From Acidimicrobiia bacterium (GTDB lineage: Bacteria; Actinomycetota; Acidimicrobiia; Spongiisociales; UBA11373): a stretch of 64,000 nucleotides of DNA. The position numbers and the translations under genes were made by a program. Below are positions 13,922-58,259 of the stretch, piece by piece. The stretch lies in contig DATHSA010000033.1 in assembly GCA_035464675.1 (NCBI GenBank), forward strand, positions 1,403-65,402, read 5' to 3'. Numbering within the stretch: position 1 is the stretch's first letter; each line of letters opens with the position of its first letter. The notes beneath the pieces were generated by a model, which saw only the letters and a program-made list of their open reading frames with translations, did not search any database and was not told the origin of the DNA.

Positions 13922-14053
13922 GACCCGTCGCCCGTCGCCCGGCGCCGGTCGCCCGTCAGAGTGGGGAAGATGGCCTCCTCGGTCGCCTCCCACCGGAGGC
14001 CTGCGGCTGGCGGCTGGCGCCCGTCTGGATGGCGGCTGTCTGGGTGGGGGCTC
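13922..14053. repeat. Heptamer-array element: CCC arm 13922-13958 (ACCCGTC GCCCGTC GCCCGGC GCCGGTC GCCCGTC), small hairpin 13985-14000, G-rich 7-nt-periodic arm 13998-14053
   Basis: Read directly. Fills the entire coaX-lysS intergenic gap. The CCC arm abuts the lysS start codon. Confidence 0.8.
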
Positions 14054-14819
14054 ATTCGCGGTTCATCTCGTATATCAGACGCAGGCCGTCGAGTGTCATC
14101 GTCGTGTCGACGATGCTCACCGAGTGGCAGTGGGGGACGATGGTAGAGGCGAGGCCCCCGGTGGCCACGACGGCGGGATCGCCCCCCACCTCTTTCACCA
14201 GCCGGTCCACGATCCCGTCGACCAGGCCCGCGTGCCCGAATACCAGCCCACTCTGGATCGCCTCCACCGTGTTGCGCCCGATCGCCGCCCGTGGTGCGGC
14301 AGTGTCGACGCGGCGCAGCGCCGCCGTCGCCCTGATCAGGGCGTCCTGGCTCACCTCGAGACCGGGGGCGATCGATCCGCCGATGTATGCACCAGACGCG
14401 TCGACCACATCCATGTTCGTCGAGGTCCCGAAGTCCACGGCGATCACCGGAGCGCCGTATTTGTGCATCGCGGCCACCGCATTGACGACGCGGTCGGCGC
14501 CGACCTCTCGCGGGTTGTCGATGTTGATGGGCATCCCGGTGCGCACACCCGGGCCGACCACCACCAGATGCCCCTGGATCATCTCCTGCGCCACCTCGAT
14601 CATGGCCGCCTTGGCCACCGGCACCACGCTCGAGAGCGCGACGCCATCGACGTCCTCGAGCCGGTATCCGTCCTGCCGGAGCAGGCCGGCGAAGTACAGC
14701 CGGTACTCGTCGGCGGTCCGCTCGCGTACGGTCGAAAGGCGCCAGGAATCCACCAACTCCTCACCCTCGAACAGGCCCATCACGGTCTGGGTGTTGCCGA
14801 CGTCGATCGCGATCAGCAT
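14052..14819 (-). CDS. coaX: Type III pantothenate kinase, 255 aa
   Basis: MLIAIDVGNTQTV N-terminus. GGAGGAG SD 4 nt upstream of ATG 14819. The ORF-track start at 14855 would overlap panC. Confidence 0.9.
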   Translation of the reverse strand: MLIAIDVGNTQTVMGLFEGEELVDSWRLSTVRERTADEYRLYFAGLLRQDGYRLEDVDGVALSSVVPVAKAAMIEVAQEMIQGHLVVVGPGVRTGMPINIDNPREVGADRVVNAVAAMHKYGAPVIAVDFGTSTNMDVVDASGAYIGGSIAPGLEVSQDALIRATAALRRVDTAAPRAAIGRNTVEAIQSGLVFGHAGLVDGIVDRLVKEVGGDPAVVATGGLASTIVPHCHSVSIVDTTMTLDGLRLIYEMNRE

Positions 14820-14844
14820 GCGCTCCTCCATGGGTCGCGGCGCC

Positions 14845-15726
14845 TCACGGCGCATCTCCGTACAACACGGATCGGCCTTCGAGGCGAGTCCCCCGGTCGG
14901 CGGTGCCGTCTGTATCGAGGAACACGTTGTCGATCAGGCGGACGTCGCCGACGGTCGCCGCCACCGCCAGGAATGCGTCGCGGTCGAGGAAACCGATCGG
15001 TCGAGCGGTGTGACGGTCGGCAAGGGTGACGTACTGCACGGTCGCCCCGGCGGCGGAGGCGGTCTCCCGGACCATTTGCTCCAGGGCGGCGCCGTCCCGC
15101 TCCCCCACCGCGGCGGCGTCGGCGGCGGCGAACAGGCCGCGTGAAAGGCCAAGCGCCGCCTTCCGGTCCGGGATGCGCACATTGCGGCTCGACAGGGCAA
15201 GGCCATCCTGCTCCCGCACCGTCGACACCGCGACGATCTCCACCGGGAACGAGAGGTCCCGCACCATCGTCGTCACCACGGCCAGCTGCTGAGCGTCCTT
15301 GCGTCCAAAGGAGGCGAGGTCCGGGCGGATTCCGGCGAGCAACTTGGCGACGACGGTCGCCACGCCGTCGAAGTGACCCGGACGGTAAGCGCCCTCCATC
15401 GCATCTGTCACTCCGGAGACCTGGACCCGGGTCACCGGCTCCTGCCGATACATCTCACCGTCCCCCGGAACGAACAGCACGTCGACGCCGGCACCCTCGG
15501 CCAGCCCGACGTCGCGGTCGAGGTCGCGCGGGTACCGCTCGAGATCGGAGGGGCTGTCGAATTGGATCGGATTCACGAAGACGCTCATCACCGCGAGATC
15601 GGCCATGCCGCGGATTGCGGCGACGCACCCCAGGTGGCCCTCGTGGAGAAACCCCATCGTGGGAACCAGGCCGACCACCCCCCTGGCCGCCTGCCGAACC
15701 TCCCGCATCGTCTCCGCGATGATCAT
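14845..15726 (-). CDS. panC: Pantoate--beta-alanine ligase, 293 aa
   Basis: PTMGFLHEGH HIGH-like motif and typical PanC sequence. ATGA overlap with the upstream gene. Confidence 0.95.
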   Translation of the reverse strand: MIIAETMREVRQAARGVVGLVPTMGFLHEGHLGCVAAIRGMADLAVMSVFVNPIQFDSPSDLERYPRDLDRDVGLAEGAGVDVLFVPGDGEMYRQEPVTRVQVSGVTDAMEGAYRPGHFDGVATVVAKLLAGIRPDLASFGRKDAQQLAVVTTMVRDLSFPVEIVAVSTVREQDGLALSSRNVRIPDRKAALGLSRGLFAAADAAAVGERDGAALEQMVRETASAAGATVQYVTLADRHTARPIGFLDRDAFLAVAATVGDVRLIDNVFLDTDGTADRGTRLEGRSVLYGDAP

Positions 15727-16535
15727 GACAACGCCCCCTCGATGATCTCCGCGGTTCCTGCCACCCGCGCCGTGGCCCGCACCATCGCCGCGAAATCACC
15801 GGCGAGATGTGGCGCCGCGGACCGGATCGCCTCCATCTGCGCTCGCACCGTTCCCACGTCGCCCCGGGCTACCGGGCCGGTCAACGCCTCCACGGGACCC
15901 ATGTCGAGGGCGTTGTCGACCACAGCCCTGATCAGTGGCTGGGCCACGGTGAAGTCGACACCCGCCGCCTCGAACAGCTCCCGCGAGAGCGCGAGCGCCG
16001 CCAGGGTGAAGTTCGCCGCCGCTGCGGCCGCGGCGTGATAGAGCGGCTTCGCATGGTCCTCCAGCTCGAAGGGGTGCGCCCCCAGCGACGCTGCAAACGC
16101 AAAGAGGCGGTCGGCGAAGGCGTTGTCACTCGAGGTGATCGCCACCCACGCATCGCGGAGCCGGGCGGCGCCGGCCTCGGGCGTCGGAAGCGTCTGGAGC
16201 GGATGGAACGACCCCAGCGGTGGCCCCTCCAACGCCGCGAGGGCAGCCACCGGTCGCAGGCCCGAGAGGTGCACCGCGCCTTCGAGGGCTCCCGCCTTGT
16301 CGGAGAGACGCTGCGCCACTTCGGTGATGGCGTCGTCGCGCACGGCCACGACGAGCAGGTCTGCGCGCGGGAGCCCCCGATCCCAGGAGAGCGGCGATGC
16401 ATCAATGCGTTCGGCGGCCGCGACCGCGTCCTCCGGGTCCCTGGCGAGCACGCCCACCACGCGATGGCCGGCGCCCACCGAGGCCAAGGAGAGGGCGAGG
16501 CCGGCCCGACCGGGGCCGACGAGGATGAGATCCAT
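15723..16535 (-). CDS. Rossmann-fold / DUF2520 domain protein (Rv3603c-like, usually linked to panC), 270 aa
   Basis: N-terminal LILVGPGRAGLAL dinucleotide-binding motif. Conserved position upstream of panC in actinobacteria. Confidence 0.75.
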   Translation of the reverse strand: MDLILVGPGRAGLALSLASVGAGHRVVGVLARDPEDAVAAAERIDASPLSWDRGLPRADLLVVAVRDDAITEVAQRLSDKAGALEGAVHLSGLRPVAALAALEGPPLGSFHPLQTLPTPEAGAARLRDAWVAITSSDNAFADRLFAFAASLGAHPFELEDHAKPLYHAAAAAAANFTLAALALSRELFEAAGVDFTVAQPLIRAVVDNALDMGPVEALTGPVARGDVGTVRAQMEAIRSAAPHLAGDFAAMVRATARVAGTAEIIEGALS

Positions 16536-16611
16536 GCGTTCCAGTCCTCTAGGGGTACCAGACGAGGATTCATCCTACGGCATCGAATCCACTCATCACC
16601 AGGGGCGACGT

Positions 16612-17097
16612 CTACCAGTCCGCCGAGCCGGCCCACCGCCGGGCCTTCTGATCACTCACATCGGCAAGGAGGTCCTCCACGGACCCCAGCCCCGGGATCT
16701 CGACTCCCGGCCACGCTTCGGCCAGCGGAGCCAGCACGAAGCGCCGCTCCACCATTCGCGGGTGAGGAATCCTGAGTCCGGGAACGTCGATCACCGCATC
16801 GGCGTACAACAGCAGGTCGAGGTCGAGTACCCGGGGACCCCACCTCTCACGCCGCTCCCTCCCGGCTTCGCGCTCGATCTCGAGACAGCCGCCGAGGAGC
16901 GGCCGGGGGCCGAGGACGGTGTGCATCACGACCACCGCGTTCAGGTACGGGCCCTGTGGCGGGCCTCCCACAGGATCGGTCTCCCAGAGTGATGAACGCG
17001 ACAGGACCTCTCCCAGAGCCGCGAGACCGCGAACGGCTCCCACGAGGTGTGCCGCCCGATCGCCGAGGTTCGAGCCGAGCCCGATGGCGACCCGCAG
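16612..17097 (-). CDS. folK: 2-amino-4-hydroxy-6-hydroxymethyldihydropteridine diphosphokinase (FolK); start codon non-canonical or unresolved
   Basis: RVAIGLGSNLGDR...LWETDPVGGPPQGPYLNAVV...RWGPRVLDLDLLLY...PHPRMVERRFVLAPL. The conserved AIGLGSNLGD strand lies upstream of the first GTG/ATG (17043). The only in-frame candidate is CTG 17097, 1 nt after the upstream stop. Confidence 0.8.
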   Translation of the reverse strand: MRVAIGLGSNLGDRAAHLVGAVRGLAALGEVLSRSSLWETDPVGGPPQGPYLNAVVVMHTVLGPRPLLGGCLEIEREAGRERRERWGPRVLDLDLLLYADAVIDVPGLRIPHPRMVERRFVLAPLAEAWPGVEIPGLGSVEDLLADVSDQKARRWAGSADW

Positions 17098-17098
17098 G

Positions 17099-17578
17099 TC
17101 ACGCCCCGGTTGACTCGGGGATGATCGCCCGGGCCTCGGGGCCCAGAGGGCGCTTGAGGATTCGTTGGACGATGTCGGTGGCCACGATCGGGTCTTCCAC
17201 CCGGCCGGAATGGACGAGGTAGCCGGCGAGCACCCCCGCGACGGCGTCGTCGACGATGTCGCGGTGGACGAGAAGGACGGTCCCTGGCTTGGCCGCGATC
17301 TCCTGCATCTTCTTGAACACCCGGCCGACCGACCCCGGTTCGAGGTCGTTGAGCGGCTCGTTGTGAGCTTCGATCTCCGCCGCCTGATAGGCGGCGATGT
17401 TCTGATTGCCCTCCAGGAGTGAGAGGACGGCGGTCACACCTGCGTTCTTCAACCAGGCGATCTCCTCCTCGCGCCGGACCCGGCGGTGCTGAGCGCCATG
17501 GCCTCCGATGCGCTCCGAGACGGCGAGACGGTCGGAGATCACCCAGGTGAAGTCGCGGGGTTCCAGTCCGGTCATCAT
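17099..17578 (-). CDS. PTP/dual-specificity-phosphatase-fold protein lacking the CX5R catalytic loop (pseudophosphatase), 159 aa
   Basis: Aligns by eye along its whole length with small archaeal/bacterial PTPs. The P-loop HCxxGxxR(S/T) is replaced by HRDIVDDAV. Start overlaps the folP stop (TGATG). Its stop is 1 nt from the folK frame. Confidence 0.6.
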   Translation of the reverse strand: MMTGLEPRDFTWVISDRLAVSERIGGHGAQHRRVRREEEIAWLKNAGVTAVLSLLEGNQNIAAYQAAEIEAHNEPLNDLEPGSVGRVFKKMQEIAAKPGTVLLVHRDIVDDAVAGVLAGYLVHSGRVEDPIVATDIVQRILKRPLGPEARAIIPESTGA

Positions 17579-18369
17579 CAGGGTCTCTCCCGCCTCACGA
17601 TAGCGTCCACCATGCGCGCCGAGCGCAGTCCCTCGACCACGTTGTGTGTGCGGATGACGCTCGCTCCGGAGGCGATCGCCAGGGCGTGGGCAGCCGTGGT
17701 GGGACCATCGCGCTCCTCCACCGGGATCGGACCGAGGACCCGCTCGATGAACGACTTCCGCGACGCCCCGACGAGCACCGGGCGGCCCGTCCCCGCGAGC
17801 CGGGCCACGCCATCGGTGAGGAGATCGAGGTTGTGGGCGACCGTCTTGCCGAAGCCGATACCGGGGTCCACGCAGATCCGGGAGGGGTCGACGCCATGGA
17901 CCACGGCGTGCTCGGTGCGATCTACCAGGTAGTTGGCGACATCCTCCACGACGTCCGCGTAGCGGGGATCGTCCTGCATGGTCCTGGGGCTTCCCAGCAT
18001 GTGCATCAGGACCAGCCCCACCCCCGACTCGGCCACGAGCGTGGCCATTGCCGGATCGCCGAGCGCAGTGACATCGTTGACGATCGCGGCACCATCCGCG
18101 ATCGCCGCCCTGGCAACGGTCGCCTTCGAGGTGTCGATCGAGACCACGATCCCCTCACGGGTGAGGGCCCTCACGACAGGGACGATGCGATCAGCCTCGG
18201 CATCCGCGTCGACGGGGTCCGCTCCGGGACGCGTCGACTCCCCTCCAACGTCGATGAGATCCGCGCCGTCCCTGGCCATCTGCAGACCGTGGGCGACGGC
18301 GGCGTCGAAGGCCAGGAACCTCCCGCCGTCCGAGAACGAGTCGGGGGTGACGTTGAGGATCCCCATCAC
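17578..18369 (-). CDS. folP: Dihydropteroate synthase, 263 aa
   Basis: GILNVTPDSFSDGG and DVGGESTRPG motifs. Confidence 0.95.
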   Translation of the reverse strand: MMGILNVTPDSFSDGGRFLAFDAAVAHGLQMARDGADLIDVGGESTRPGADPVDADAEADRIVPVVRALTREGIVVSIDTSKATVARAAIADGAAIVNDVTALGDPAMATLVAESGVGLVLMHMLGSPRTMQDDPRYADVVEDVANYLVDRTEHAVVHGVDPSRICVDPGIGFGKTVAHNLDLLTDGVARLAGTGRPVLVGASRKSFIERVLGPIPVEERDGPTTAAHALAIASGASVIRTHNVVEGLRSARMVDAIVRRERP

Positions 18370-18446
18370 GAGGGTGTGATGCTCGTTGGAGAGGGTGGCG
18401 CCCCCGCCGATCTCCCAGCGGGTCGGCTCGAATGGTCGCCGCAGGC

Positions 18447-20399
18447 TCAGGAGGAGCCGCTCCCATCGGAGGTGCGCGCCGCGGCGATGTCACCCCGGGC
18501 GATCTCGCCGTTGGGCGCCTGGATCCGCATCGAGCCGTTGGGAACGTGCTCCCACTTGGGCACGTCGGCAAGGATCTCCTCGATGTCGGGCGCATAGAGC
18601 GTCTCTTTGTCGAGGAGTGCATCGGCCAGTCGGTCGAGGGCGTCCCGATGAGTCGTGATGATCGCCCGCGCCTCTTCGTGCGCCTGGTTGATCAGCTTGC
18701 GGACCTCCTCGTCGATCATCGCCGCGACCTCGTCCGAGTAGTCGATCGATCGGTTGTAGTCCCGCCCGAGAAACACCTGCCCCTGCGGGGTTCCGTACCG
18801 CATCGGGCCGAGGCGGTCGCTCATGCCGTGCTCCATGACCATGGAACGGGCGAGGTCCGTGGCCTGCTCGATGTCGTTGTGGGCCCCCGTCGAGGGATCC
18901 CCGAAGATGATCTCCTCGGCAGTCCGCCCCCCGAGGGCGCGTGCCAGCGTGTCGACCATCTCGGAGCGGCGGCGATACGATCGGTCCTCCATCGGCATCG
19001 AGCGGGTGTACCCACCCATCCGACCGCGAGGGATGATCGTCACCTTGGTCACCGGGTCGGCGTGTGGGAGGGCGAACCCGACCAGCGCGTGGCCGCCCTC
19101 GTGGTAGGCGGTGAGCTGCTTCTCCTCGTCGGTCATCACCTTGCTTCGGCGCTCGGGCCCTGCGATGACCCGGTCGATCGCCTCCTCCAACTCGGCCTGG
19201 GAGATCTCGTCCTTGTCCCTGCGGGCGGCGAGCAGCGCCGCCTCGTTGATGGTGTTGGCCAGGTCCGCACCTGTGAAGCCGGGCGTCGCCCGGGCGATCT
19301 GGGCAAGATCGACGTCGTCGCCGAACGGCTTGCCCTTGGCGTGGACCTCGAGGATCTTCTCCCTGCCCCTGATGTCGGGACGGTCGACGACGATCTGGCG
19401 ATCGAATCGACCCGGTCGCAGCAGCGCCGGGTCGAGGATGTCCGGCCGGTTGGTGGCGGCGATGAGGATCACGCCGGTCTTCACGTCGAACCCATCCATC
19501 TCCACCAGCAGCTGGTTGAGGGTCTGCTCACGCTCGTCGTGGCCGCCACCGAGGCCGGCACCGCGGTGGCGGCCAACGGCGTCGATCTCGTCCACGAAGA
19601 CGATCGCCGGTGCCTGCGCCTTTGCCTGCTCGAAGAGATCGCGGACCCGGCTGGCTCCGACGCCGACGAACATCTCGACGAAGTCGGACCCGGAGATCGA
19701 GAAGAACGGGACTCCCGCCTCGCCGGCGACGGCACGGGCGAGCAGGGTCTTGCCGGTGCCCGGCGGGCCGTACAGCAGAACACCCTTGGGGATCTTGGCG
19801 CCCATCGCACGGAACTTCTGGGGTCGCGACAGGAACTCCTTGATCTCGTAGAGCTCCTCGACCGCCTCCTCGGCCCCGGCGACATCGGCGAACGTGACCT
19901 TGGGCATGTCGCGGCTGATCTGCTTCGCCTTGGCCTTGCCGAACTGCATCACCCGGTTGCCGCCGCCCTGCATCTGCAGGAGGATGAATATGAAGACACC
20001 GAAGATCAGCACGTACGGCAGGACTGCCAGCAACCACTCCCAGATCCCCGGATTCTCGGACTCGATCTCGAGAACCACTCCGTTGTCGAGAATCAACCGG
20101 GTCAGGTCGCCTTCGTAGCCATCGGGGAACGTGGTCTCGAACCGGCCGCCACCGGCACCCTCCGTGTACGTGCCGGTGATGACGTTGGACTTCTGCTTGA
20201 TCGTGACGGTCTCGATGTCACCGGCGGCGAGTTGTGTCTCGAACCGGTCCAGCGTCAGCTCCTCGGGGCCGGTCGCCGAGCTGACAAAGGTGTTGACCAG
20301 CATGATCGCCACGGTGACGATCACCAGGTACACCAGCACGGTGCGAACGGTTCGGCTCACGTGTTCGAGTCCAATCGAAGACGGTGGGACCGGCGCCAT
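18447..20399 (-). CDS. ftsH: ATP-dependent zinc metalloprotease FtsH, 650 aa
   Basis: Two N-terminal TM segments, AAA module [18 protein letters not shown], zinc motif HEGGHAL. Confidence 0.97.
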
Positions 20400-20431: not shown

Positions 20432-20510
20432 CCGTTACCCGTTACCCGTTACCCGTTTACCCGTTACCCGTTACCCGTGCGGGGTCGCAAGGAACGGGGA
20501 ACGGGCAACG
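20432..20510. repeat. Heptamer-array element: (CCGTTAC)x6 at 20432-20477 (one 8-nt unit), 13-nt spacer, complementary arm GGAACGGGGAACGGGCAACG at 20491-20510
   Basis: Read directly. Lies in the hpt-ftsH intergenic region. Confidence 0.9.
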
Positions 20511-24836: not shown

Positions 24837-24861
24837 ATGGTAGACCGTTGCCCGTTGCCCG
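24837..24861 (-). promoter_or_regulatory. Putative tRNA-Thr promoter: -10 TACCAT (24842..24837) preceded by two GGGCAAC heptamers (24845-24861)
   Basis: Minus strand reads CGGGCAACGGGCAACGGTCTACCATTCCCGCCTCAC, then the mature tRNA 5' end. Confidence 0.35.
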
Positions 24862-29083: not shown

Positions 29084-29150
29084 CGTCGCCCGTTGCCCGT
29101 TGCCCGATACCCGTGCATCGCTGGCCGGCCAAACGGGAAACGGGAAACGG
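29084..29150. repeat. Heptamer-array element: CGTCGCC CGTTGCC CGTTGCC CGATACC CGTG (29084-29115), spacer, AAACGGG AAACGGG AAACGG (29131-29150)
   Basis: Read directly. Intergenic, between the epimerase-family gene stop and the acyl-CoA dehydrogenase start. Confidence 0.9.
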
Positions 29151-30108: not shown

Positions 30109-30188
30109 CCGTCGCCCGTCGTCTGCCCGGAGAGCGCACGCACGCGTCGGGATTCCTGCCGGGCGACGGGCGTCGGGCGACCGGCGAC
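30109..30188. repeat. Heptamer-array element: CCGTCGC CCGTCGT CTGCCCGG (30109-30130), 28-nt spacer, CCGGGCGA CGGGCGT CGGGCGA CCGGCGA C (30159-30188)
   Basis: Read directly. Intergenic, between the plsC-like stop and the epimerase-family start. Confidence 0.85.
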
Positions 30189-33978: not shown

Positions 33979-34033
33979 CGTCTCCCGTCGCCCGTCACCC
34001 GTCTCCCGTCGTCACCCGTTCCCCGTTGCCCGG
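33979..34033. repeat. Heptamer array CGTCTCC CGTCGCC CGTCACC CGTCTCC CGTCGTCACC CGTTCCC CGTTGCC CGG (about 7.5 units)
   Basis: Read directly. Lies 17 nt downstream of the topA stop and 52 nt upstream of the MFS start. The minus (mRNA-sense) strand carries 7 GGG tracts. Confidence 0.9.
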
Positions 34034-34049: not shown

Positions 34050-36716
34050 TCAGGTCTCCTTCTTGCCGGAAGCCGGGGGCGGGGGGCTGACGGCCTCACC
34101 TTCTGTCTTGCTGGAGGCTGGGGGCTGGGGGCTGGGGGCTTTCTTGCCGGGTTTGACGGTCTTGCCCTCTGCCTCCAGCTTGGCGCGGCGCTCGGCGAGG
34201 AGCTCGGCGGCGCGCTCGAGGGTGATCTTCTCCACCGAGTCGTCGCGGCGCAGTGATGCATTGACACCACCATCGGTCACGTATGGCCCGAATCGACCGT
34301 CCCTGACCTCGACCTCGTACCCGGTTCCGGGTTCGACACCGAGTGCCTTGAGGGGCTTGGCGCTCCGGGCACCGCGGCGCTGCTTCGGCTGGGCGAAGAG
34401 CGCCAGCGCGCCCTCCAGATCGATCTCGAAGATCTGCCCCTCGGCCTCCAGGCTCCGGGTGTCGGAGCCCTTCTTGAGGTAGGGACCGTACCGGCCGTTC
34501 TGTGCGGTGATCTCCTCACCCGACTCCGGATCCTCGCCGACGACGCGGGGCAGCGAGAGAAGTCGCAGCGCCTCCTCCAGAGTGACGGTGTCGAGGCCCA
34601 TCGACTTGAGGAGCGAGGCCGTCTTGGGCTTCCCCTTCTGGTCGTCGGATTCGCCCAGCTGGACATACGGGCCGAACCGACCGGACTTGGCGATCACGTC
34701 CAGACCGGTGTCCGGATCGGAGCCGAGCAGCCGTTCGCCGGACGGAGCCTCGAGCAACTCGGTCGCCTTCTCCAGGGTCAGCTCGTCGGGTGGCAGGTCC
34801 TCGGGTACGGACACCCGATCCTCGCCGCGCTCCAGGTACGGCCCGTAGCGCCCGCTGCGGAGCACCACGTCTTCGCCCCCATCGAAGGGGATGGTGTTGA
34901 TCTCTTTGGCGTCCGCGGCGTCGAAGGTCCTCTCGACCAGTTCGACCAGGCCCGGATGACCGTTGCCGAAATAGAACGAGGCCAGGTAGGGGATGTGCTC
35001 CCGATCACCCCCGGCTATCTCATCCAGATCCTCCTCCATTCGGGCGGTGAATCCATAGTCCACGAGGTCGGTGAAATGCCGTTCGAGGAGCCGGACGGTC
35101 GCAAACGCGAGGAATGTCGGCACGAGTGCCGAGCCCTTCTTCCAGACGTACCCGCGCTCCTGGATCGTGGAGATGATCGAGGCGTACGTCGAGGGCCGGC
35201 CGATCCCCAGCTCCTCGAGCTTCTTCACGAGCGACGCCTCCGTATACCGGGCCGGGGGCTTGGTCTCGTGCCCGACCGCCTCCAGGCTCTCGGTGTCGAG
35301 CGCCTGGCCCTCCTGCAGCGGCGGAAGCCGGATCTCCTGGTCCTCGAGCTCGGCGTCGGGATCGTCGGAGCCCTCGACGTACGCCCGGAGGAATCCCGGG
35401 AAGGTGATGACCTTGCCCGAGGCGGAGAACTCGGCGTCCTTGCCCGACGACCCGATGGCGCCGAGACGGACCTGGACGCTCTCCCCCACCGCGTCCGCCA
35501 TCTGGGAGGCGACGGTCCGCTTCCAGATCAGGTCGTAGAGCTTCGACTCGTCGGGGCCGACGTGGCGTGCCACCTCATCGGGAGTTCGAAACCGGTCGCC
35601 GGCAGGCCGGATGGCCTCATGCGCCTCCTGTGCATTCTTGACCTTCGAGGTGTAGATGCGGGGCGAAGCCGGCAGGTAGTCGCCACCGTACAACTCGGCA
35701 ACCTGGGTCCTCGCCGCCGTCACCGCTGTCTCCGACAGCGAGATGCTGTCGGTGCGCATGTAGGTGATGTACCCGTTCTCATAGAGGCGCTGAGCGACCT
35801 GCATCGTCCGCTGCGATCCGAACCGGAGCTTGCGGCCCGCCTCCTGCTGGAGCGTCGACGTCCGGAACGGTGGATAGGGAGAGCGCTTGTACGGCTTGCT
35901 CTCCACACGCCGGACCGAGAAGTCGGAGTCGGACAGATCGTCCACGACGGCCTCGGCCGCCGTCCGATCCAGCAGAACCACGTCGCTGCGGGCGACGGCG
36001 CCCGCGCTGTCGAAGTCCTTTCCGGAGGCGACCCGCACGCCGTCGAGGTCGGCGAGGACCGCGGAGAACGACCCGTCCGCGGTGGCGAACACCCCGGCCA
36101 CGTCCCAGTACTCGGCGGTGCGGAACGCCATGCGCTCCCGCTCACGCTCGACGATGATCCGGATCGCCGGACTCTGCACCCGTCCCGCCGACAGCTTGGG
36201 GCGAATCAGCTTCCACAGGACCGGCGACACCTCGTACCCGAACAGCCGATCGAGGATGCGGCGCGTCTCCTGGGCGTCCACCAGCCGGCGATCCAGGTCG
36301 CGGGGCTGCTCGATGGCGTGCCGGATCGCGTCCGGCGTGATCTCGTGGAAGACCATCCGCTTGACCGGCACCCGCGGGTTGAGCACCTCCGTCAGGTGCC
36401 AGGCGATCGACTCCCCTTCGCGGTCCTCGTCCGTCGCCAGGTAGAGCTCATCGGCCTCCTTGACGAGCTTCTTCAGCTTGGTTATCTGGGACGACTTCTC
36501 CTTGGGGACGATGTAGAGCGGCTTGAAGTCGTTCTCGGTGTCGACGCCGAGCCGTGCCCATGCCTCGTCCTTGTACGACTTGGGGATGTCGGCCGCGCTG
36601 CGCGGAAGGTCGCGCACATGACCGATGGAGGACTCGACGACGTAATCGCCGCCGAGAATCCCGGCGATGGTGCGCGCCTTGGCAGGCGACTCGACGATGA
36701 CGAGTTTGGAGGACAT
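34050..36716 (-). CDS. topA: DNA topoisomerase I, 888 aa, with Lys/Pro-rich C-terminal tail
   Basis: Toprim N-terminus LVIVESPAKARTI, active-site region, actinobacterial-type C-terminal repeats (GRFGPY x4) and a basic tail. Confidence 0.97.
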   Translation of the reverse strand: MSSKLVIVESPAKARTIAGILGGDYVVESSIGHVRDLPRSAADIPKSYKDEAWARLGVDTENDFKPLYIVPKEKSSQITKLKKLVKEADELYLATDEDREGESIAWHLTEVLNPRVPVKRMVFHEITPDAIRHAIEQPRDLDRRLVDAQETRRILDRLFGYEVSPVLWKLIRPKLSAGRVQSPAIRIIVERERERMAFRTAEYWDVAGVFATADGSFSAVLADLDGVRVASGKDFDSAGAVARSDVVLLDRTAAEAVVDDLSDSDFSVRRVESKPYKRSPYPPFRTSTLQQEAGRKLRFGSQRTMQVAQRLYENGYITYMRTDSISLSETAVTAARTQVAELYGGDYLPASPRIYTSKVKNAQEAHEAIRPAGDRFRTPDEVARHVGPDESKLYDLIWKRTVASQMADAVGESVQVRLGAIGSSGKDAEFSASGKVITFPGFLRAYVEGSDDPDAELEDQEIRLPPLQEGQALDTESLEAVGHETKPPARYTEASLVKKLEELGIGRPSTYASIISTIQERGYVWKKGSALVPTFLAFATVRLLERHFTDLVDYGFTARMEEDLDEIAGGDREHIPYLASFYFGNGHPGLVELVERTFDAADAKEINTIPFDGGEDVVLRSGRYGPYLERGEDRVSVPEDLPPDELTLEKATELLEAPSGERLLGSDPDTGLDVIAKSGRFGPYVQLGESDDQKGKPKTASLLKSMGLDTVTLEEALRLLSLPRVVGEDPESGEEITAQNGRYGPYLKKGSDTRSLEAEGQIFEIDLEGALALFAQPKQRRGARSAKPLKALGVEPGTGYEVEVRDGRFGPYVTDGGVNASLRRDDSVEKITLERAAELLAERRAKLEAEGKTVKPGKKAPSPQPPASSKTEGEAVSPPPPASGKKET
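34113..34140. repeat. In-CDS heptamer repeat GGAGGCT GGGGGCT GGGGGCT GGGGGCT (plus strand), encoding APSPQPPAS of the TopA tail
   Basis: Read directly. G5/G6 runs also occur at 34075-34087. Confidence 0.8.
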
Positions 36717-44720: not shown

Positions 44721-44750
44721 CGTTACCCGTTACCGGTCGCCCGTCACCCG
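44721..44750. repeat. Heptamer array CGTTACC CGTTACC GGTCGCC CGTCACC CG, 9 nt upstream of the trkA ATG
   Basis: Read directly. CCC arm of the trkA/nhaA divergent-region element. Confidence 0.85.
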
Positions 44751-44870: not shown

Positions 44871-44951
44871 CAGGGGTGACGGGAGACGGGAAACGATTCG
44901 ACTCCCGAGCCAACCGGAACCCCTCGAGAGACCGTTACCCTGCGGGGTCCC
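44871..44951 (+). repeat. GGG arm (CAGGGGTGACGGGAGACGGGAAACG) plus a conserved ~75-nt module upstream of nhaA, including the -10-like TACCCT at 44936-44941
   Basis: Shares GACGGGAGACGGG, ACGATTCG, CCGA.CCAAC and GACC(C)GTT(T)ACC blocks, in the same order, with 50268-50341. Confidence 0.7.
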
Positions 44952-50230: not shown

Positions 50231-50294
50231 CCGACGCCCGACGCCCGACGCCCGATGCCCGGCAACACGGACGGGAGACGGGCGACTGGAGACG
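50231..50294. repeat. Heptamer-array element: CCGACGC x3 + CCGATGC CCGG (50231-50262), 5-nt spacer, CGGACGGGAGACGGGCGACTGGAGACG (50268-50294)
   Basis: Read directly. Centre of the 129-nt divergent region between the P-type ATPase and the helicase. Confidence 0.9.
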
Positions 50295-50341: not shown

Positions 50342-52588
50342 ATGCACCCCGCCGTCGCGTCATGGCTCGCCGATCCCGAGCGGGCCGACCGGATCGCCCA
50401 CGTGGAGACGGTCGCCGAGCGCCGGGCCATCTTCGAGGACCTCGACCCGCCGATGCCGGACGACCTACGGGCCGCTCTCGCCGAACGAGGGATCGACCGC
50501 CTGTACCGCCACCAGGCGCAGGCGATCAAGCGCGCCCGGGCCGGGACGCACACGGTGGTCGTGGCCGGCACGGCTTCGGGAAAGTCCCTGGGCTATCAGG
50601 TGCCGATCCTGGAGGCGGCACTGGAGGACCGGGCCGCGACGGCCCTCCTCCTCTTCCCGACCAAGGCCCTCGCGCGCGATCAGTTCCGGGCGATGCATGC
50701 CTTCGGCATCCCCGAGGTGACACCGGTCGTCTATGACGGCGACACCGACTCGGAGACGAGATCATGGGCCCGCAAGCACGCCACGGTCGTCATGACCAAC
50801 CCCGACATGCTGCACGTCGGGATCCTGCCCTCGCACGGCAAGTGGGCCACATTCTTCCGGAGGCTCCAGTACGTGGTGATCGACGAGGTCCACGTGCTCC
50901 GGGGCATCTTCGGAAGCCACGTCGGCAACGTGGTGCGGAGGCTGCGCCGGGTGGCCCGTCACTACGGCGCCGATCCCACATTCCTCGGGTCGTCGGCGAC
51001 GATCGGCAACCCCGGGGAGCTGATGTCGGCGCTCACCGGCCTGCCCGTCGATGTCGTCGAACAGGACGCCTCGCCCGCGGGCGTGCGGCACTACGTCCTG
51101 TGGAATCCCGAGTTGGAGGAGGACGACACCCGGCGCAGCCCCCTCGCCGAGACCACGGATCTGTTTGTCGACCTGGTCGGTCGGGGCGAGCACACCATCG
51201 CCTTCGCCCGCAGCCGAAAGGGAGTGGAGCTGGTCTACCGGTGGGCTCGCGAGCGGCTCGACCTCGACCTCGCCGATCGCATCGCTCCGTACCGGGCGGG
51301 ATACCTGCCGGAACAGCGTCGCGAGATCGAGGAGCGCCTGTTCTCCGGCGAGCTGCTCGGCGTCACTGCCACCAACGCATTGGAACTGGGGATCGACGTG
51401 GGCGGCCTCGACGCCGCCATCGTCGCCACATTCCCGGGGACGGTCGCCTCGTTCCGCCAGCAGACCGGACGAGCGGGGAGATCCACCGAGGAGTCGTTGT
51501 CGGTGCTGGTCGCCGGCCAGGACGCCCTCGATCAATGGTACGTGAACCACCCCGGAGACCTGTTCGGCCGACCCTCCGAGGCAGCGGTGGTGAACCCGGC
51601 CAATCCTCACATCCTCGCCGGCCACATGGGCTGCGCCGCCTACGAGATCCCGATGCTCTCCGAGGACGCAGTGGCCACCTTTGGACCGGAGGTCGAGTCG
51701 CTGGCTGCCGACCTCGTCTCCGAGGGCGCGCTGCGCATCCGGAACGGACGGCTCCTCTGGGCCGGGCGAGGCGCCCCGGCTCCTGCCATCGACATCCGGA
51801 CTGCCGGAGGGCCGCCCTACACCATCGTCGACACCCGAGGTGAGGTGATGGGGACCGTCGACGAGAGCCGCGTGTTCTCACAGGCCCATCCCGGTGCGGT
51901 CTACCTCCACCAGGGCGACTCGTATGTGATCGAGAACCTGTCGGTGGAGGACCGGCTGGTGCGGGCCCGCCCCGGCGAGGTCGGGTACTACACGCAGCCG
52001 GAGGAGGACACCACCGTCGAGGTCCGCGTCGTGCTGCGTTCAGGCGCGGTCGGGCGCTTCGGGCACAGGCTGGGCGATGTCGAGGTCGAATCGCGCGTCA
52101 CCGGGTTCAAGCGCAAGAAGATCTCGGACCGCAGCGTCATCTCGTACGAGCCTCTCGACCTGCCGCCACGGCGCTACGAGACCCAGGCGATCTGGTTCAC
52201 GGTGGACGACGACCTGCTGCGCGATGCCGGGATCGCCACCGTCGACCTGCCGGGCACCCTCCACGCCGCCGAGCACACCGGGATCGCCATGCTCCCCCTC
52301 TTCGCCATCTGCGACCGGTGGGACATCGGCGGGCTGTCGACACCCTTCCACGCCGCGACCGGCATGCCCGTCTGGTTCATCTACGACGGCTACCCCGGCG
52401 GCGCCGGAATCGCCCCCCTCGCCTATCAGGCCGGCACGCGTCACCTCTCGGCGACGCTCGAGGCGCTGCGCACCTGCCCCTGTGACACCGGTTGTCCCTC
52501 ATGCGTCCAGTCGCCCAAGTGCGGCAACTTCAACGAGCCCCTGGACAAGGCGGGGGCGATCCGGCTGCTCGAGGTGGGCCTGGGGTGA
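50342..52588 (+). CDS. DEAD/DEAH-box helicase with C-terminal 4-Cys DUF1998 (MrfA/Rv3649-like 'helicase/secretion neighbourhood' helicase), 748 aa
   Basis: Internal ATG 50342 of ORF 50198..52588. Walker A GTASGKS, DEVH box, C-terminal CPCDTGCPSCVQSPKCGN. Confidence 0.9.
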   Translation: MHPAVASWLADPERADRIAHVETVAERRAIFEDLDPPMPDDLRAALAERGIDRLYRHQAQAIKRARAGTHTVVVAGTASGKSLGYQVPILEAALEDRAATALLLFPTKALARDQFRAMHAFGIPEVTPVVYDGDTDSETRSWARKHATVVMTNPDMLHVGILPSHGKWATFFRRLQYVVIDEVHVLRGIFGSHVGNVVRRLRRVARHYGADPTFLGSSATIGNPGELMSALTGLPVDVVEQDASPAGVRHYVLWNPELEEDDTRRSPLAETTDLFVDLVGRGEHTIAFARSRKGVELVYRWARERLDLDLADRIAPYRAGYLPEQRREIEERLFSGELLGVTATNALELGIDVGGLDAAIVATFPGTVASFRQQTGRAGRSTEESLSVLVAGQDALDQWYVNHPGDLFGRPSEAAVVNPANPHILAGHMGCAAYEIPMLSEDAVATFGPEVESLAADLVSEGALRIRNGRLLWAGRGAPAPAIDIRTAGGPPYTIVDTRGEVMGTVDESRVFSQAHPGAVYLHQGDSYVIENLSVEDRLVRARPGEVGYYTQPEEDTTVEVRVVLRSGAVGRFGHRLGDVEVESRVTGFKRKKISDRSVISYEPLDLPPRRYETQAIWFTVDDDLLRDAGIATVDLPGTLHAAEHTGIAMLPLFAICDRWDIGGLSTPFHAATGMPVWFIYDGYPGGAGIAPLAYQAGTRHLSATLEALRTCPCDTGCPSCVQSPKCGNFNEPLDKAGAIRLLEVGLG

Positions 52589-56777: not shown

Positions 56778-57331
56778 TCCGGCCACGGAAGCCCCCACGC
56801 ACTCCGCCAGGCCCGGACCCAACGATCCTTCGGCCCGGGTCTCCGACCATCGAGCAGCGACCGAACCGTTGCGGTGGAGGGGACCGGCAGGCGCACCCCG
56901 ATCCCGGGGAGGCGGGCGAACGAGGGCGTGGCCTGGAAGACGGCCGGGCCTTCGTGCGGACCGAAGAGATCCGCCGGAAGATGAAGCCTCACCGGGACCA
57001 CCGGCATCGACAGGCCCGCCGGAGCGGGACGCGGCGGAAGCCTCAGCACCACCCGCGGATGATGCGCGAGCAGAGCCTCGACCACCCTCCACGCGTCTCC
57101 CGGGCTGACACCGCCGTTGCGGAGGACGGCGACGCCGCGCCGGGGCGTGAGGTCGTCCTTGGTGACCCCGTCCTCGACGAGATCGGCGAGTGAGCGGGCT
57201 CCCGGGTACCGGGGGCCGAGGGGATCGAGATCGACGACCGCTGCATCGCCCGCCGCCAGGGCCAGCCCGAGTGGAGCGAGCGCGCCAAGCAGCCCGTCCT
57301 CCGGCGTCCACACGGCGAGCGCCGGATGCAT
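56774..57331 (-). CDS. Secretion-neighbourhood protein in the CpaE/ParA position but lacking a Walker A motif, 185 aa
   Basis: ORF 56774..57331, first gene of the tad operon. AVWTPEDGLLGALAPLGLALAAG occupies the place where ParA-like proteins carry GGxGxGKS/T. Confidence 0.55.
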   Translation of the reverse strand: MHPALAVWTPEDGLLGALAPLGLALAAGDAAVVDLDPLGPRYPGARSLADLVEDGVTKDDLTPRRGVAVLRNGGVSPGDAWRVVEALLAHHPRVVLRLPPRPAPAGLSMPVVPVRLHLPADLFGPHEGPAVFQATPSFARLPGIGVRLPVPSTATVRSLLDGRRPGPKDRWVRAWRSAWGLPWPE

Positions 57332-57416
57332 GCGGGCAACCTATGTCGCTGGGGCCCTCTGCTCAAGGGGGCTGTGAGGGCCACTTCCGAGACATCGATG
57401 GCACACTGAGACCGCA

Positions 57417-58193
57417 ATGGAGGCCGCATTCTTCGATCTCGACAAGACGGTGATCGCCCGATCGTCCACCCTGGCGTTCACCGGTCGGCTGTACAAGGCG
57501 GGGATGCTCCGCCGGCACACACTCATCCGCGCCGGCATGGGGCAGCTGATGTACATGCTGTTCGGAGCCGACGAGGACCAGCTGGCGAAGGCACGCGACG
57601 CCATGCTCCAGCTGACCAAGGGGTGGGACCGCGCCGAAATCGAGCGAATCGTCGAGGAGGCGCTCGAGGAGGTCGTCGCCCCCATCGTCTACGCCGAGGC
57701 CCTCTTCCTGATCGACGAGCACATGCGGGAGGGGCGCAAGGTGTTCATCGTCTCGGCCAGCCCCCACGAGGTGGTACATCCACTCTCGCGATACATCGGT
57801 GTCGAAGACGTGATCGCCACCCGGGCCAGGGTGGACGGGGAGGGTCGATACACCGGAGAGGTGGAACTCTATGCCTACGGGCCCGACAAGGCCAACGCTG
57901 TCCGGGCGGTGGCCGAGGAACAGGGTATCTCCCTCGAGAACTCGTACGCCTACTCGGACAGCGCCACCGACATCCCCCTGCTCGAACTGGTCGGACATCC
58001 CCATGCGGTGAACCCCGAAAAGGAACTCCGGGCCGTGGCCGAGGAGCGGGGCTGGCCGATCCTGGAGTTTCAGCGGCAGGTCAGCCTCACCGAGCGCCTC
58101 ACCCGGCCGGTCCCCCTCATATCGGGTGCAACGGTCGCCGCCGTGATCGGAGCGGCGATCGCATGGGTGCTTCTGCGGAAGAAGCGCGGGTAG
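57417..58193 (+). CDS. HAD-IB family hydrolase (SerB-like, Rv3661-like) with C-terminal TM segment, 258 aa
   Basis: Motif I FFDLDKTV, motif IV YSDSATD. Divergent from the tad operon. Confidence 0.85.
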
Positions 58194-58259
58194 CCCGTCG
58201 CCCGTCGCCGGTCACCCGTCCCCCACAGCCGCGGGGAGCCGGGGCTGGGGACCGGGAAC
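58193..58259. repeat. Heptamer-array element: GCCCGTC GCCCGTC GCCGGTC ACCCGTC CCCC (58193-58224), spacer, GCGGGGAGCCGGGGCTGGGGACCGGGAAC (58231-58259)
   Basis: Read directly. Starts at the last base of the HAD stop codon. The G arm has four G3-4 tracts with 2-4 nt loops. Confidence 0.9.

Follow-up and report, generated by a model that had tools for sequence, protein, structure and literature searches.

Heptanucleotide repeat arrays in the intergenic spacers of an Acidimicrobiia bacterium and their probable origin

Heptamer arrays between the genes

The window that was analysed here, a stretch of 64 kb from an uncultured Acidimicrobiia bacterium, is 93% coding according to our gene map, and about one third of its longer intergenic gaps carry tandem repeats of a heptamer. 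The arrays lie next to lysS, ftsH, a tRNA-Thr gene, the genes encoding an acyl-CoA dehydrogenase, an epimerase and an MFS transporter, trkA, nhaA, the genes encoding a P-type ATPase and a helicase, and msrA (Table 1). Tandem Repeats Finder (TRF) returned 15 period-7 rows, which are the ones credited to it in the table, and every array that had been quoted in an earlier, sequence-only reading of this DNA was found in its place when the sequence was inspected. That reading took every locus to be intergenic, which is true of all of the loci it listed; however, a GCTGGGG array that was absent from its list lies within topA, at the 3' end of the coding sequence, and therefore not all of the arrays are intergenic. 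It is possible that this array is a weak partner (4/7 complement) of the arm at 33979-34033. At the first locus (13922-14053), the G-arm (14003-14052) is only a weak partner, with a best match of 5/7 to the complement of the C-arm.

Table 1. Heptamer arrays of the window (all coordinates on the plus strand)
Position	Array	Context	Basis
13924..13957	C-arm, CCCGTCG x4.9	minus strand GGGCGAC; ends 2 nt before lysS ATG at 13921	TRF, sequence, lysS Pfam
14003..14052	weak G-rich partner, GCGGCTG, period 7/15	abuts coaX stop at 14052	TRF
20432..20478	C-arm, CCGTTAC x6.6, one 1-nt insertion	minus (sense) strand (GGGTAAC)6, 28 nt upstream of conserved ftsH -10 TACCAT	TRF, sequence
20491..20510	G-arm, GGAACGG x2.9	starts 12 nt after partner 20432-20478; 6/7 complement	TRF
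24845..24861	single arm, CCGTTGC x2.4	19 nt upstream of tRNA-Thr (24751-24825, minus strand); followed by TACCAT hexamer on minus strand	TRF, sequence
29084..29114	C-arm, CGTTGCC x4.4	epimerase/acyl-CoA dehydrogenase gap	TRF, sequence
29131..29150	G-arm, AAACGGG x2.9	ends 2 nt from epimerase stop at 29153; 6/7 complement	TRF
30109..30129	C-arm, CCGTCGCCCGTCGTCTGCCCG	minus strand: 22 nt upstream of TACCCT -10 of leaderless epimerase gene	sequence
30160..30188	G-arm, CGGGCGA x4.1	ends 5 nt from acyltransferase stop at 30194	TRF, folding
33979..34033	single long arm, ~7.5 units CGTCNCC	minus strand GGGNNAC x8; between topA stop (34050) and conserved TAGCCT -10 of MFS gene	TRF, sequence
34110..34140	GCTGGGG x4.4	inside topA 3' coding end	TRF, Pfam
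44721..44750	C-arm, CGTYACC x4.3	divergent trkA/nhaA gap; last unit gives TAACGT, -10-like, 8 nt before trkA ATG	TRF, sequence
44874..44895	G-arm, GGGAGAC x3.1	starts 123 nt after partner 44721-44750, whose unit order it mirrors; 40 nt upstream of nhaA -10 TACCCT	TRF
50231..50261	C-arm, CCGACGC x4.4	divergent P-type ATPase/MrfA-like helicase gap	TRF, sequence
50270..50294	G-arm, GACGGGA x3.6	starts 8 nt after partner 50231-50261; 5/7 complement; 34 nt upstream of helicase-gene -10 TACCGT	TRF
58193..58224	C-arm, GCCCGTC x4.6	starts at final stop-codon base of HAD-hydrolase gene (57417-58193)	TRF, sequence
58231..58259	G-arm, GGGGAGC CGGGGCT GGGGACC GGGAAC	14 nt upstream of msrA -10 TACCGT	sequence

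The heptamer arrays are real and far from random. Exact arrays of at least three CCCGNNN units occur seven times on the plus strand, compared with a mean of 0.17 and a maximum of 2 in 200 dinucleotide shuffles, a control that had been proposed together with the comparison of coding and intergenic DNA. In the latter, the exact recurrence of a hexamer at lag 7 reached 23.7 per kb in the intergenic sequence (4209 nt) and 0.64 per kb in the coding sequence, a 37-fold difference in density, and lags other than 7 and its multiples showed no enrichment, none of them exceeding 1.5 per kb in the intergenic DNA. Moreover, an independent ENA contig that covers positions 18338-30399 (L001) differs from the window by seven SNPs and carries identical arrays, which shows that they are not artefacts of the assembly. 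Although CCC and GGG runs are commoner by chance in a genome with 68% G+C and the looser CCCNNNN x3 pattern exceeds the shuffles only 3-5 times, these three results refute compositional noise or an assembly artefact as an explanation.

Conserved TANNNT hexamers are located 6-9 nt before the start codons. The arrays precede these hexamers, being placed after the stop codon of one gene and before the promoter of the following, mostly leaderless, one. In the co-directional gaps, the first arm begins 0-19 nt past the upstream stop and the pair is wholly upstream of the next promoter, and at the two of the nine loci that are found in divergent gaps, the arms are upstream of both promoters. When the arrays are subtracted, about 40 nt of the window's gaps are left. 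In each array-bearing gap, the gene downstream is preceded by a G-rich arm on its sense strand, and the same is true of the tRNA and of either gene in the divergent pairs.

Unit, arm order and turnover among relatives

The comparison of 61 units from 17 arms gave the consensus CCCGTYN, in which position 4 is G in all but one of the units and position 7 takes any base; it is also at this last position that the deviations within the arrays cluster (chi-square P = 0.003). The dominant unit of this lineage is GGGNRAC, or GTYNCCC on the other strand. Neighbouring arrays are reverse complements at the level of the unit (5.29/7 matches versus 3.70/7 for random pairs), and none of 20,000 resamples reached the observed mean (P < 5e-5). 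In all seven two-armed loci of the window, the C-arm precedes the G-arm (two-sided binomial 0.016). The claim that the opposite order never occurs is correct for the window but not beyond it, since the window's clade has nine C-first and two G-first pairs and other phyla have six and 27, respectively (Fisher P = 2.8e-4 for the contrast). Arm order is a lineage tendency, and in the heptamer pairs of Xanthomonas it is reversed relative to the window.

The sequence-only reading had not recognised the element from the actinobacterial literature; however, repeats of this type have already been described. Rehm (2015) reported G-rich heptamer repeats, inverted pairs included, in Xanthomonas and Nostoc, with a variable base directly after GGG, a preference for intergenic DNA, some 70 inverted pairs in each genome and both quadruplex and hairpin potential (PMC4692102). 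The Xanthomonas unit GGGNATC, whose quadruplexes were shown by circular dichroism, shares the GGG core and the variable next base with the GGGNRAC of the window, and the Nostoc unit, GGGGAYT, is likewise a G-rich intergenic heptamer with inverted pairs (PMC4692102). As cited in two later papers (PMC4692102, PMC4679880), Mrazek (2007) had already reported an over-representation of heptamers, which form the commonest class of 5-11 nt repeats, and had named Actinobacteria among the genomes that are rich in such repeats. The arrays of the window belong to this class of heptanucleotide simple-sequence repeats, which is known from Xanthomonas, Nostoc and other bacteria, and units of this type, with many inverted pairs, are present across many phyla.

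The orthologous gaps of syntenic relatives hold other heptamers, such as GTCAGGT x9 with ACATCTG x3, the set of CTCCAGT, CGCTTGC and CGCCTTC, CCCGTTG x17 and GCTGTTG x9, or the pairs CATCCAG with TGCTGGT and CGCAATT with CGAATTG, and the units of L209 and L210 have no G tracts. The CCCG core that had been proposed for the unit therefore stands within the window but is not the feature conserved among the relatives, which have period 7 and inverted arms in common rather than a CCC/GGG core. Several orthologous gaps retain some array while its unit differs, and in the acyltransferase-epimerase gap both arms changed together, being of the GTC type in the window and of the GTT type in L122 and L124. 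In L126 and L208, this gap and the epimerase-ACAD gap are 45-86 nt long and have no array, despite which the promoter-proximal sequence is conserved. Between the strains L124 and L125 (~99.4% identity), one array differs by a 14-nt, two-unit indel and the others are unchanged, and no array differences were found between the window and L001 or between L122 and L123. This indicates that the arrays change by whole units, at a rate similar to that of base substitution and not at the pace of a contingency locus. Period-7 TRF rows number 2.3 per 10 kb in the window, 7.4 in L122, 6.0 in L124 and 3.8 in L126, compared with 0.39 for 80 loci (869 kb in total) that encode TopA relatives at 57-67% identity, and the arrays are thus restricted to a clade.

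Origin of the arrays and the alternatives

We consider it somewhat better than an even chance (roughly 0.55) that the arrays are slippage-generated heptanucleotide repeats that are tolerated only in unconstrained spacers and have been duplicated into inverted pairs. In this model, a 7-nt direct repeat that had arisen by chance would seed slipped-strand mispairing during replication, the array would then gain and lose whole units and be eroded by base substitution, and a reverse-complementary second arm could arise through inverted duplication or template switching inside the same gap. As a length of 7 nt is not divisible by 3, selection would purge the arrays from coding DNA, and they would therefore pile up, nearly neutrally, only in the one part of this compact genome that is under little sequence constraint, the spacer that follows a stop codon and precedes the core promoter of the downstream, mostly leaderless, gene. 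Paired arms can fold as long, imperfect stem-loops in which each 7-bp block contains one mismatch, and G-rich arms without a partner can form quadruplexes; any structural role is putative, and a sequence-specific regulatory role is not needed for the pattern. Slippage is favoured by the enrichment of period 7 in intergenic DNA only, the unit-wise indel, the turnover of heptamers, the array-free gaps of L126 and L208, the clade restriction, the inverted arms, the location upstream of promoters and the occurrence of the same repeat type across phyla. Against it, one unit family makes up all 17 arms, whereas independent chance seeding predicts many units, as in the sister genomes, and six of the seven positions are kept and only position 7 is free, whereas plain neutral decay predicts an even variability across positions. 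The model also leaves the strong strand-symmetric polarity, C-first here and G-first elsewhere, without a mutational explanation, and does not account for a length of 7 nt alone or for the presence of the arrays in some lineages only.

The gaps that retain an array despite a change of unit could reflect selection for the array or the hairpin as such. REP elements protect RNA 3' ends from exonucleases, and the paired arms may similarly be selected stem-loops at the boundaries of transcription units, whose read-through RNA hairpin terminates transcription without a U-tract or shields the 3' end, with slippage merely building and renewing the stems. We regard this as unlikely. The complementary arms pair in the minimum-energy folds at six of the eight loci (on both strands for 44721-44750 with 44874-44895), the hpt-ftsH gap is strongly structured (z = -5.3), and the placement of the pairs just past a stop and the joint change of the arms in the acyltransferase-epimerase gap, where the architecture was kept with a different unit, point in the same direction. 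Moreover, canonical hairpin-plus-T-run terminators were no more frequent than chance predicts in 20 kb of the window (three found, 5.0 expected), and an alternative boundary device would therefore be useful. However, none of the arms is followed by a U-tract, position N is mostly mismatched between the arms, which gives one mismatch per 7 bp, two loci are single-armed, the divergent gaps need no terminator and the sister lineages are array-free at the same gaps. The stability of the long imperfect hairpins that had been proposed is unexceptional: the z-scores of the arm pairs ranged from +1.2 to -2.2, or from -0.3 to -2.2 when only the sense strand was taken at the five loci whose arms are clearly complementary and share one gap, and gaps with arrays were no more stably folded than gaps without them (MFE per nt of -0.44 versus -0.39, P = 0.28), which fits a generative rather than a selected origin.

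It is improbable that the arrays are promoter-associated G-quadruplex or i-motif elements in which the non-template G-rich arm modulates transcription and is countered by the C-arm as an anti-quadruplex partner. The sense-strand G-rich arm upstream of every downstream gene agrees with this, as does the likeness to the quadruplex-forming Xanthomonas unit, and promoter prediction in GC-rich bacteria makes use of quadruplex motifs that precede an AT-rich -10 element (PMC5801747). Six loci have at least four G3 tracts on the minus strand and one clearly has them on the plus strand; the loops of several arms are 4 nt long, and the G4Hunter scores reach 1.2-2.0. The quadruplex rule had been said to apply to several arms, which is true of some, but many hold only 2-3 G3 tracts. 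In quadruplex-aware folding, a quadruplex entered the minimum-energy structure only at the single-armed 33979-34033, and the hairpin is predicted to prevail wherever both arms are present. In the loops, the bases A and C are conserved to the same degree as the G tract, which a quadruplex alone would not call for, and neither the heptamers without G tracts in the sister genomes nor the copy-number mode of 4.0-4.5 units, which is also seen in units that lack G3 or C3, fits this reading.

Only a small chance is given to the arrays being sites for a lineage-specific protein, or another kind of reader, that recognises RACGGG (= CCCGTY) every 7 nt in single-stranded DNA or RNA, for which cold-shock-domain proteins with one protein per heptamer could be the model. 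The six fixed positions and the dominance of a single unit family across 64 kb would suit such a reader, and a precedent exists in the B. subtilis CspB on heptamer direct repeats, which was discussed for TAACTGA repeats (PMC4679880). However, the unrelated units at the same gaps in close relatives mean that no pair of reader and site is conserved across the clade, no candidate protein was found and the neighbouring genes, from lysS and ftsH to trkA and msrA, do not add up to a coherent regulon. An origin of the arrays as copies of a mobile or dispersed element (MITE or REP/RAYT-type) is very improbable; an intergenic location, an inverted-repeat form and one unit family at many loci would be expected of such copies, but terminal inverted repeats and target duplications are absent, the arm lengths and spacings (8 to 123 nt) vary, only the heptamer unit is conserved while the loops and flanks are different at every locus, and the arrays occupy orthologous positions in the relatives with differing copy numbers.

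Heptamer arrays in the window

We read the arrays, with a probability of about 0.55, as a lineage-specific proliferation of heptanucleotide repeats that slippage would generate, that an inverted duplication would supply with a second arm and that selection would restrict to the spacer between the stop codon and the promoter. Every array that had been quoted by the sequence-only reading was found in its place, and overall its observation was confirmed, while its interpretation was borne out in part only. Tandem Repeats Finder (TRF) reported 15 period-7 rows in the window. The non-randomness of the pattern held well: exact runs of at least three CCCGNNN units were found seven times on the + strand, whereas 200 shuffles of the window that preserved its dinucleotides gave 0.17 on average and never more than 2. 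In a motif-free test, exact hexamers recurred at lag 7 at 23.7/kb in the intergenic DNA (4209 nt) as opposed to 0.64/kb in the coding DNA, and intergenic recurrence at lags that were not multiples of 7 was at most 1.5/kb each. About 480 nt lie in arrays, which is approximately 11% of the intergenic DNA, and the clade thus shows that heptamer repeats can be dense even in a compact genome, 93% of the window being coding according to our own gene map. The arrays are not assembly artefacts because L001, an independent ENA metagenome contig that spans 18338-30399 with seven SNPs, carries identical ones.

The view that the arrays are exclusively intergenic was too strict; the intergenic enrichment is strong, but one further array (34110-34140) lies within the 3' end of topA. 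The tail encoded there consists of heptamer repeats whose unit differs by relative (see the table), and the slippage process would therefore also reach a low-complexity protein tail. Of the pair that had been described at 13922-14053, the C-arm (tandem CCC-type heptamers) was upheld, while the partner arm at 14003-14052 is weak. The arm near the tRNA-Thr gene is single, and a TACCAT -10-like hexamer follows it on the minus strand. A search of the window against Rfam 15 at the gathering threshold returned one match, the tRNA, and no known RNA family at the arrays.

The consensus C-C-C-G-T-Y-N was found in 17/17 arms, which comprise 61 units in the 64-kb window. Of the 61 units, 87-92% have C at positions 1-3, 60 have G at position 4 and 95% have C or T at position 6, while position 7 accepts any base. 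Where units depart from the consensus of their own array, they do so disproportionately at position 7 (17/51, chi-square P = 0.003), and this variability is the main observation that is left over by a purely neutral model. The mode of the copy number was 4.0-4.5 units, also for units without G3/C3, in a distribution that is shaped by the TRF score threshold; since these units have an equal mode, an explanation of a putative four-unit preference by quadruplexes is weakened.

Turnover of units among syntenic relatives

The gene content and order of the window are actinobacterial (lysS-coaX, folate genes with ftsH-hpt-tilS, topA), and the homologues of the epimerase (29153-30073) that bear a name are labelled as Acidimicrobiia MAG proteins. 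Syntenic relatives were found through the identity of this epimerase: the ENA metagenome contigs L122 (86%) and L124 and L125 (both 76%), the Logan assemblies L209 (70%) and L208 (61%), GCA_040882645.1 (L126, 68%) and GCA_975961985.1 (L210, 62%). The key result is that the orthologous gaps of the relatives also hold tandem heptamers, often of an unrelated unit. The CCC/GGG core, which had been taken as the defining feature, consequently has to be abandoned as such: what the relatives share is a 7-nt period with arms in an inverted layout, and CCC/GGG is the locally dominant unit of the window's genome. The unit was wholly exchanged in about half of the gaps at 76-86% protein identity. CCCGTYN was kept in the gap from hpt to ftsH in the window and L124, with differing copy numbers, and it is present from the acyltransferase to the epimerase in the window, L122 and L124. 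A single dominant G3-bearing unit was not the case in L122, L126, L209 or L210. Because period 7 and inverted pairing outlast the turnover of the units, the question of periodicity can be separated from that of quadruplexes.

The density of period-7 TRF rows per 10 kb was 2.3 in the window, 7.4 in L122, 6.0 in L124 and 3.8 in L126, and it was 0.39 across 869 kb from 80 loci that encode TopA relatives of 57-67% identity. In the syntenic L208, a single short row was found, a 2.3-copy CGCCGCC within a gene. The contrast between array-rich and array-poor loci indicates that the phenomenon is patchy and confined to particular lineages. Syntenic sisters with and without arrays, together with a polarity that varies by lineage, form a natural comparative system, in which it can be asked which replication, repair and transcription genes co-vary with heptamer proliferation and polarity.

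Far longer, near-perfect arrays were observed in L124 and L210, which indicate recent expansions. Between strains, no changes were found in five arrays of the window and L001 (0.06% divergence), nor in any array between L122 and L123 (0.02%). At 0.6% divergence, L124 and L125 differ by one 14-nt indel of two units and three substitutions in one array of about ten, and the 17-unit array is unchanged between them. Change is by whole units at a rate that is comparable to base substitution and far below that of contingency loci.

Position between stop codons and promoters

When the gap ends were aligned across the relatives, TANNNT hexamers proved to be conserved 6-9 nt upstream of the start codons. 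Such a spacing is the layout of leaderless transcripts and suggests that these are widespread in the lineage. Upstream of the epimerase, the hexamer lies 6-7 nt before the ATG in 5/7 genomes, and in a sixth, TAGTCT is only 3 nt before the called start. For ftsH, GGGATACCATG is conserved in the window, L124 and L210, 39 nt upstream of the GTG at 20360 on the minus strand (region 20360-20410). This points to a start at 20360, which gives 637 aa as in the relatives, and ftsH probably starts there rather than at 20399 (650 aa, the ENA gene call). For the MFS gene of L122, L124 and L209, the true start probably lies 51 nt upstream of the public call. Two sigma-70 scans found no consensus promoters, the promoters being visible only by the alignment of relatives. 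The topA promoter is conserved in all of the syntenic relatives, and its TTGACA indicates that consensus -35 elements exist in the lineage.

The arrays lie upstream of the -10 hexamers at a distance of 14-40 nt, and in co-directional gaps the first arm begins 0-19 nt past the previous stop. They therefore occupy the spacer from the stop codon to the next core promoter and are mostly outside the downstream mRNA, which argues against a quadruplex that acts from the 5'-UTR. The gaps from the acyltransferase to the epimerase and from the epimerase to the acyl-CoA dehydrogenase are just 45-86 nt long and without arrays in L126 and L208, and the gaps of the window minus their arrays are about 40 nt; the arrays are thus dispensable additions to a minimal promoter-bearing gap. 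Among gaps of at least 60 nt, arrays were present in 7/19 co-directional and 2/6 divergent ones, and short convergent gaps had none. For annotation, the lesson is to take the arrays as markers of the spacer that separates a stop codon from the next leaderless promoter, and not to annotate them as a new regulatory RNA or a mobile element.

Several minor observations concern the same gaps and their neighbours. The sequences that follow the G-arm (complementary GGGNRAC-type heptamers) in two divergent gaps are modestly alike, and a gene for an MrfA/Hrq1-like helicase adjoins one of these array pairs. The perfect palindrome upstream of the 99-aa ORF is also conserved in L122, L124 and L126, and it resembles an operator; the ORF had no Pfam match. 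The ENA gene call stretches the P-type ATPase over the region of a cytochrome c gene, while in the relatives cytochrome c has a gene of its own and the ATPase is 645 aa long, which makes an ATPase start at 25453 more likely.

Positions and sequences of arrays, promoter elements and neighbouring features (window coordinates unless a relative is named)
Feature	Position	Sequence	Remark
Single arm	24845-24861		19 nt upstream of tRNA-Thr gene
tRNA-Thr gene	24751-24825 (-)		anticodon CGT
topA tail, window	34110-34140	GCTGGGG	C-terminal coding end
topA tail, L122	5969-5995	CCAGCAG	C-terminal coding end
topA tail, L124	4946-4975	CCGGCGA	C-terminal coding end
L122, acyl-CoA dehydrogenase to 99-aa gene		GTCAGRT x9 then ACATCTG x3	second array inverted
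L122, epimerase to acyl-CoA dehydrogenase		CTCCAGT, CGCTTGC, CGCCTTC
L124, epimerase to acyl-CoA dehydrogenase		CCCGTTG x17
L126, topA to MFS		GCTGTTG x9
L124		CATCCAG with TGCTGGT
L126		CGCAATT with CGAATTG
L209 and L210		AATTCGC, TGGCTAT, CTACTTG x12	among others
Long array, L124	9866-9989	CCCGTTG x17.7
Long array, L210	4565-4649	CTACTTG x12.1
Long arrays, L124	14436-14616	AAGTCGC x8.4 beside GGCGACG x12.4
MFS -10-like hexamer	33934-33939	TAGCCT	in all six genomes holding the gap
Epimerase -10-like hexamer	30081-30086	TACCCT, TACGCT or TAGCCT	in five of seven genomes
nhaA -10-like hexamer	44937-44942	TACCCT	window
Helicase -10-like hexamer	50329-50334	TACCGT	window
msrA -10-like hexamer	58274-58279	TACCGT	window
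trkA -10-like hexamer		TAACGT	supplied by last repeat unit
topA promoter	36745-36772 (-)	TTGACA-N17-TAAACC
Sequences after G-arm	44896-44951, 50295-50341	ATTCG..CCGA.CCAAC ... CCGTT(T)ACC(C/G)T	divergent gaps
Helicase gene	50342-52588 (+)		DEAD, Helicase_C, WHD_HRQ1, MZB; adjoins 50231-50294
Hairpin after hpt stop	20514-20528	GAGGGC-nnn-GCCCTC	before the arms
Palindrome	27787-27808	AGAATCACA-gcaa-TGTGATTCT	just upstream of 99-aa ORF
99-aa ORF	27469-27768 (-)
Cytochrome c gene	~24955-25350 (-)		CAACH motif
P-type ATPase, ENA call	24961-27462 (+)		833 aa

Paired arms, rival explanations and known repeat classes

The order of C-arm before G-arm was found in all seven two-armed loci of the window (binomial 0.016). 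When the window, L122, L124 and L126 were pooled, period-7 arrays at most 250 nt apart matched each other's reverse complement at 5.29/7 positions in the best rotation, compared with 3.70/7 for random pairs; none of the 20,000 resamples was as high, and 9/17 pairs matched at 6/7 or more. The identity of neighbouring arrays in direct orientation (3.29/7) was not above that of random pairs (3.67), so the paired arms are not direct copies.

A selected stem-loop at transcription-unit boundaries is an unlikely explanation for the arrays. The hairpins that had been proposed do form in the minimum-energy fold at 6/8 loci, and even the arms at 44721 and 44874, 123 nt apart, are paired, with a mirrored order of units. 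Their stability, however, is unexceptional: relative to dinucleotide shuffles, the arm pairs had z of +1.2 to -2.2, and at the five loci where one gap holds both of two clearly complementary arms, the sense strand had -0.3 to -2.2. Nor was extra stability found for array-bearing gaps compared with array-free ones (MFE/nt -0.44 vs -0.39, P = 0.28), the mean z of whole gaps being -0.5 with arrays and -0.8 without. Since position N is mostly non-complementary between the arms, each 7-bp block holds one mismatch. With fold energies ordinary for arm pairs and whole gaps alike, we do not claim a selected hairpin. The gap from hpt to ftsH is the sole strongly structured one that bears arrays (z = -5.3); a hairpin directly follows the hpt stop there, and in L124 its stem is kept while the loop has changed.

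More speculative, and rather improbable, is that the paired arrays act as self-renewing, bidirectional boundary elements of transcription units in Acidimicrobiia with leaderless mRNAs, where stem-loops free of a U-tract or cruciforms extruded by supercoiling would insulate promoters and the C-first order would be enforced. If so, the C-first polarity would let the G-rich arm pair once transcribed and so keep R-loops and RNA quadruplexes from forming. The sharp difference between sister lineages with and without arrays would, on this view, lead back to a particular component of replication, repair or termination that was gained or lost, and this would explain the bacterial preference for 7-nt repeats.

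We consider a promoter-proximal quadruplex or i-motif very unlikely. A quadruplex was predicted in the minimum-energy fold only at the single-armed locus 33979-34033, and some arms have predicted G4Hunter scores of 1.2-2.0; however, in quadruplex-aware folding the hairpin wins at all of the two-armed loci, and the sister genomes use units without a G tract. Less probable still is that the arrays are serial sites at which a reader recognises RACGGG. The three rivals (stem-loop, quadruplex and reader) keep their weight mainly because one unit family with position-specific conservation dominates this genome and the polarity bias is left over.

The assertion that the opposite order never occurs holds for the window but not in a wider search. 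Scanning one genome per species for (CCCGTNN)x3CCCG gave at least 120 matching stretches, a search in which the G3/C3 arrays found are biased to at least four units. The matches listed, which are a sample of taxa rather than a census, come from Gemmatimonadota, Acidobacteriota, Actinomycetota (including Streptomyces), Chloroflexota, Xanthomonadales-like bacteria, Bacteroidota, Myxococcota and cyanobacteria. Among them were 292 period-7 rows, other units included, 36/72 adjacent pairs that are inverted complements, and an order that was G-first in 27 pairs and C-first in 6. The clade of the window, in contrast, had 9 C-first and 2 G-first pairs (Fisher P = 2.8e-4). In Xanthomonas, only "convergent" (G-first) pairs were reported by Rehm et al. 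(2015, PMC4692102). Since the arrangement reads alike on both strands, neither transcription nor replication can set the polarity by its direction. As a candidate account, a transcript with the C-arm first may pair its G-arm on emerging, which would disfavour RNA quadruplexes.

The closest described class is that of the G-rich heptameric repeats of Xanthomonas (GGGAATC/GGGNATC) and Nostoc (GGGGAYT) reported by Rehm et al. (2015, PMC4692102). Both have a 7-nt tandem unit in which a G3 tract is followed by a variable base, as in GGGNATC, one dominant unit per genome (here checked on 64 kb), a strong intergenic bias with ordinary housekeeping neighbours, an apparently typical length of about four units and frequent inverted pairs that are able to form stem-loops (70 in Xcc and 75 in Xac); relatives share the repeat type but differ in its copy number. 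In Xanthomonas, however, the G-arm comes first, beside the stop codon, and the G strands converge, whereas here the C-arm comes first and the G-rich strands diverge, and divergent gaps of the window show no depletion of the repeats. The present arrays are set apart by the unit GGGNRAC, the host class (Acidimicrobiia, Actinomycetota), the reversed polarity, the sister units free of a G tract and the sharp presence/absence contrast between sister lineages. According to Mrazek, Guo and Shah (2007), as related in PMC4692102 and PMC4679880, heptamers are the commonest class of long repeats and are enriched in high-G+C non-pathogens; in these summaries, three of the ten genomes with the most 5-11 nt repeats are Actinobacteria, polymerase slippage is proposed as the origin, and there is no description of paired inverted arms, polarity or a presence/absence contrast between sisters.

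The cyanobacterial STRR and the TAACTGA repeats, the latter of Beggiatoaceae, cyanobacteria and Bacteroidetes (MacGregor 2015, PMC4679880), are likewise tandem heptamers of intergenic DNA; a single unit dominates each genome, and the repeats often lie near start codons. Unlike the arrays of the window, their units contain A+T and are oriented relative to the downstream gene, and they occur almost only as direct repeats (169 direct sets vs 1 indirect). REP/BIME elements and the quadruplex-hairpin-duplex switch motifs of E. coli are also intergenic, hairpin-capable imperfect palindromes, some of which can alternatively form quadruplexes (Kaplan et al. 2016, PMC5100583). REP, however, is a fixed family of about 35 nt that is spread by RAYT transposases, while each arm here is a tandem run of heptamers, the loops are particular to the locus and conservation ends with the unit; a REP or MITE reading was rejected, as loops and flanks differ at every locus and the arm spacing ranges from 8 to 123 nt.

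Intrinsic (Rho-independent) terminators share a G+C-rich stem-loop after the stop codon, but no T-run follows any arm, and some arrays are single arms or lie between divergent genes. A terminator scan of 13800-33700 gave nothing at any array and three sites overall compared with 5.0 expected, and the canonical-terminator reading was dropped on this result. Phase variation and CRISPR were both dismissed on anatomy and strain comparisons. Contingency loci are also short tandem repeats that change by whole units, but their units have 1-5 nt instead of 7, and the copy number here is stable in near-identical strains. The neighbours of the arrays (lysS, ftsH, tRNA-Thr, topA, trkA, nhaA, msrA and similar) are housekeeping genes rather than surface or contingency genes.
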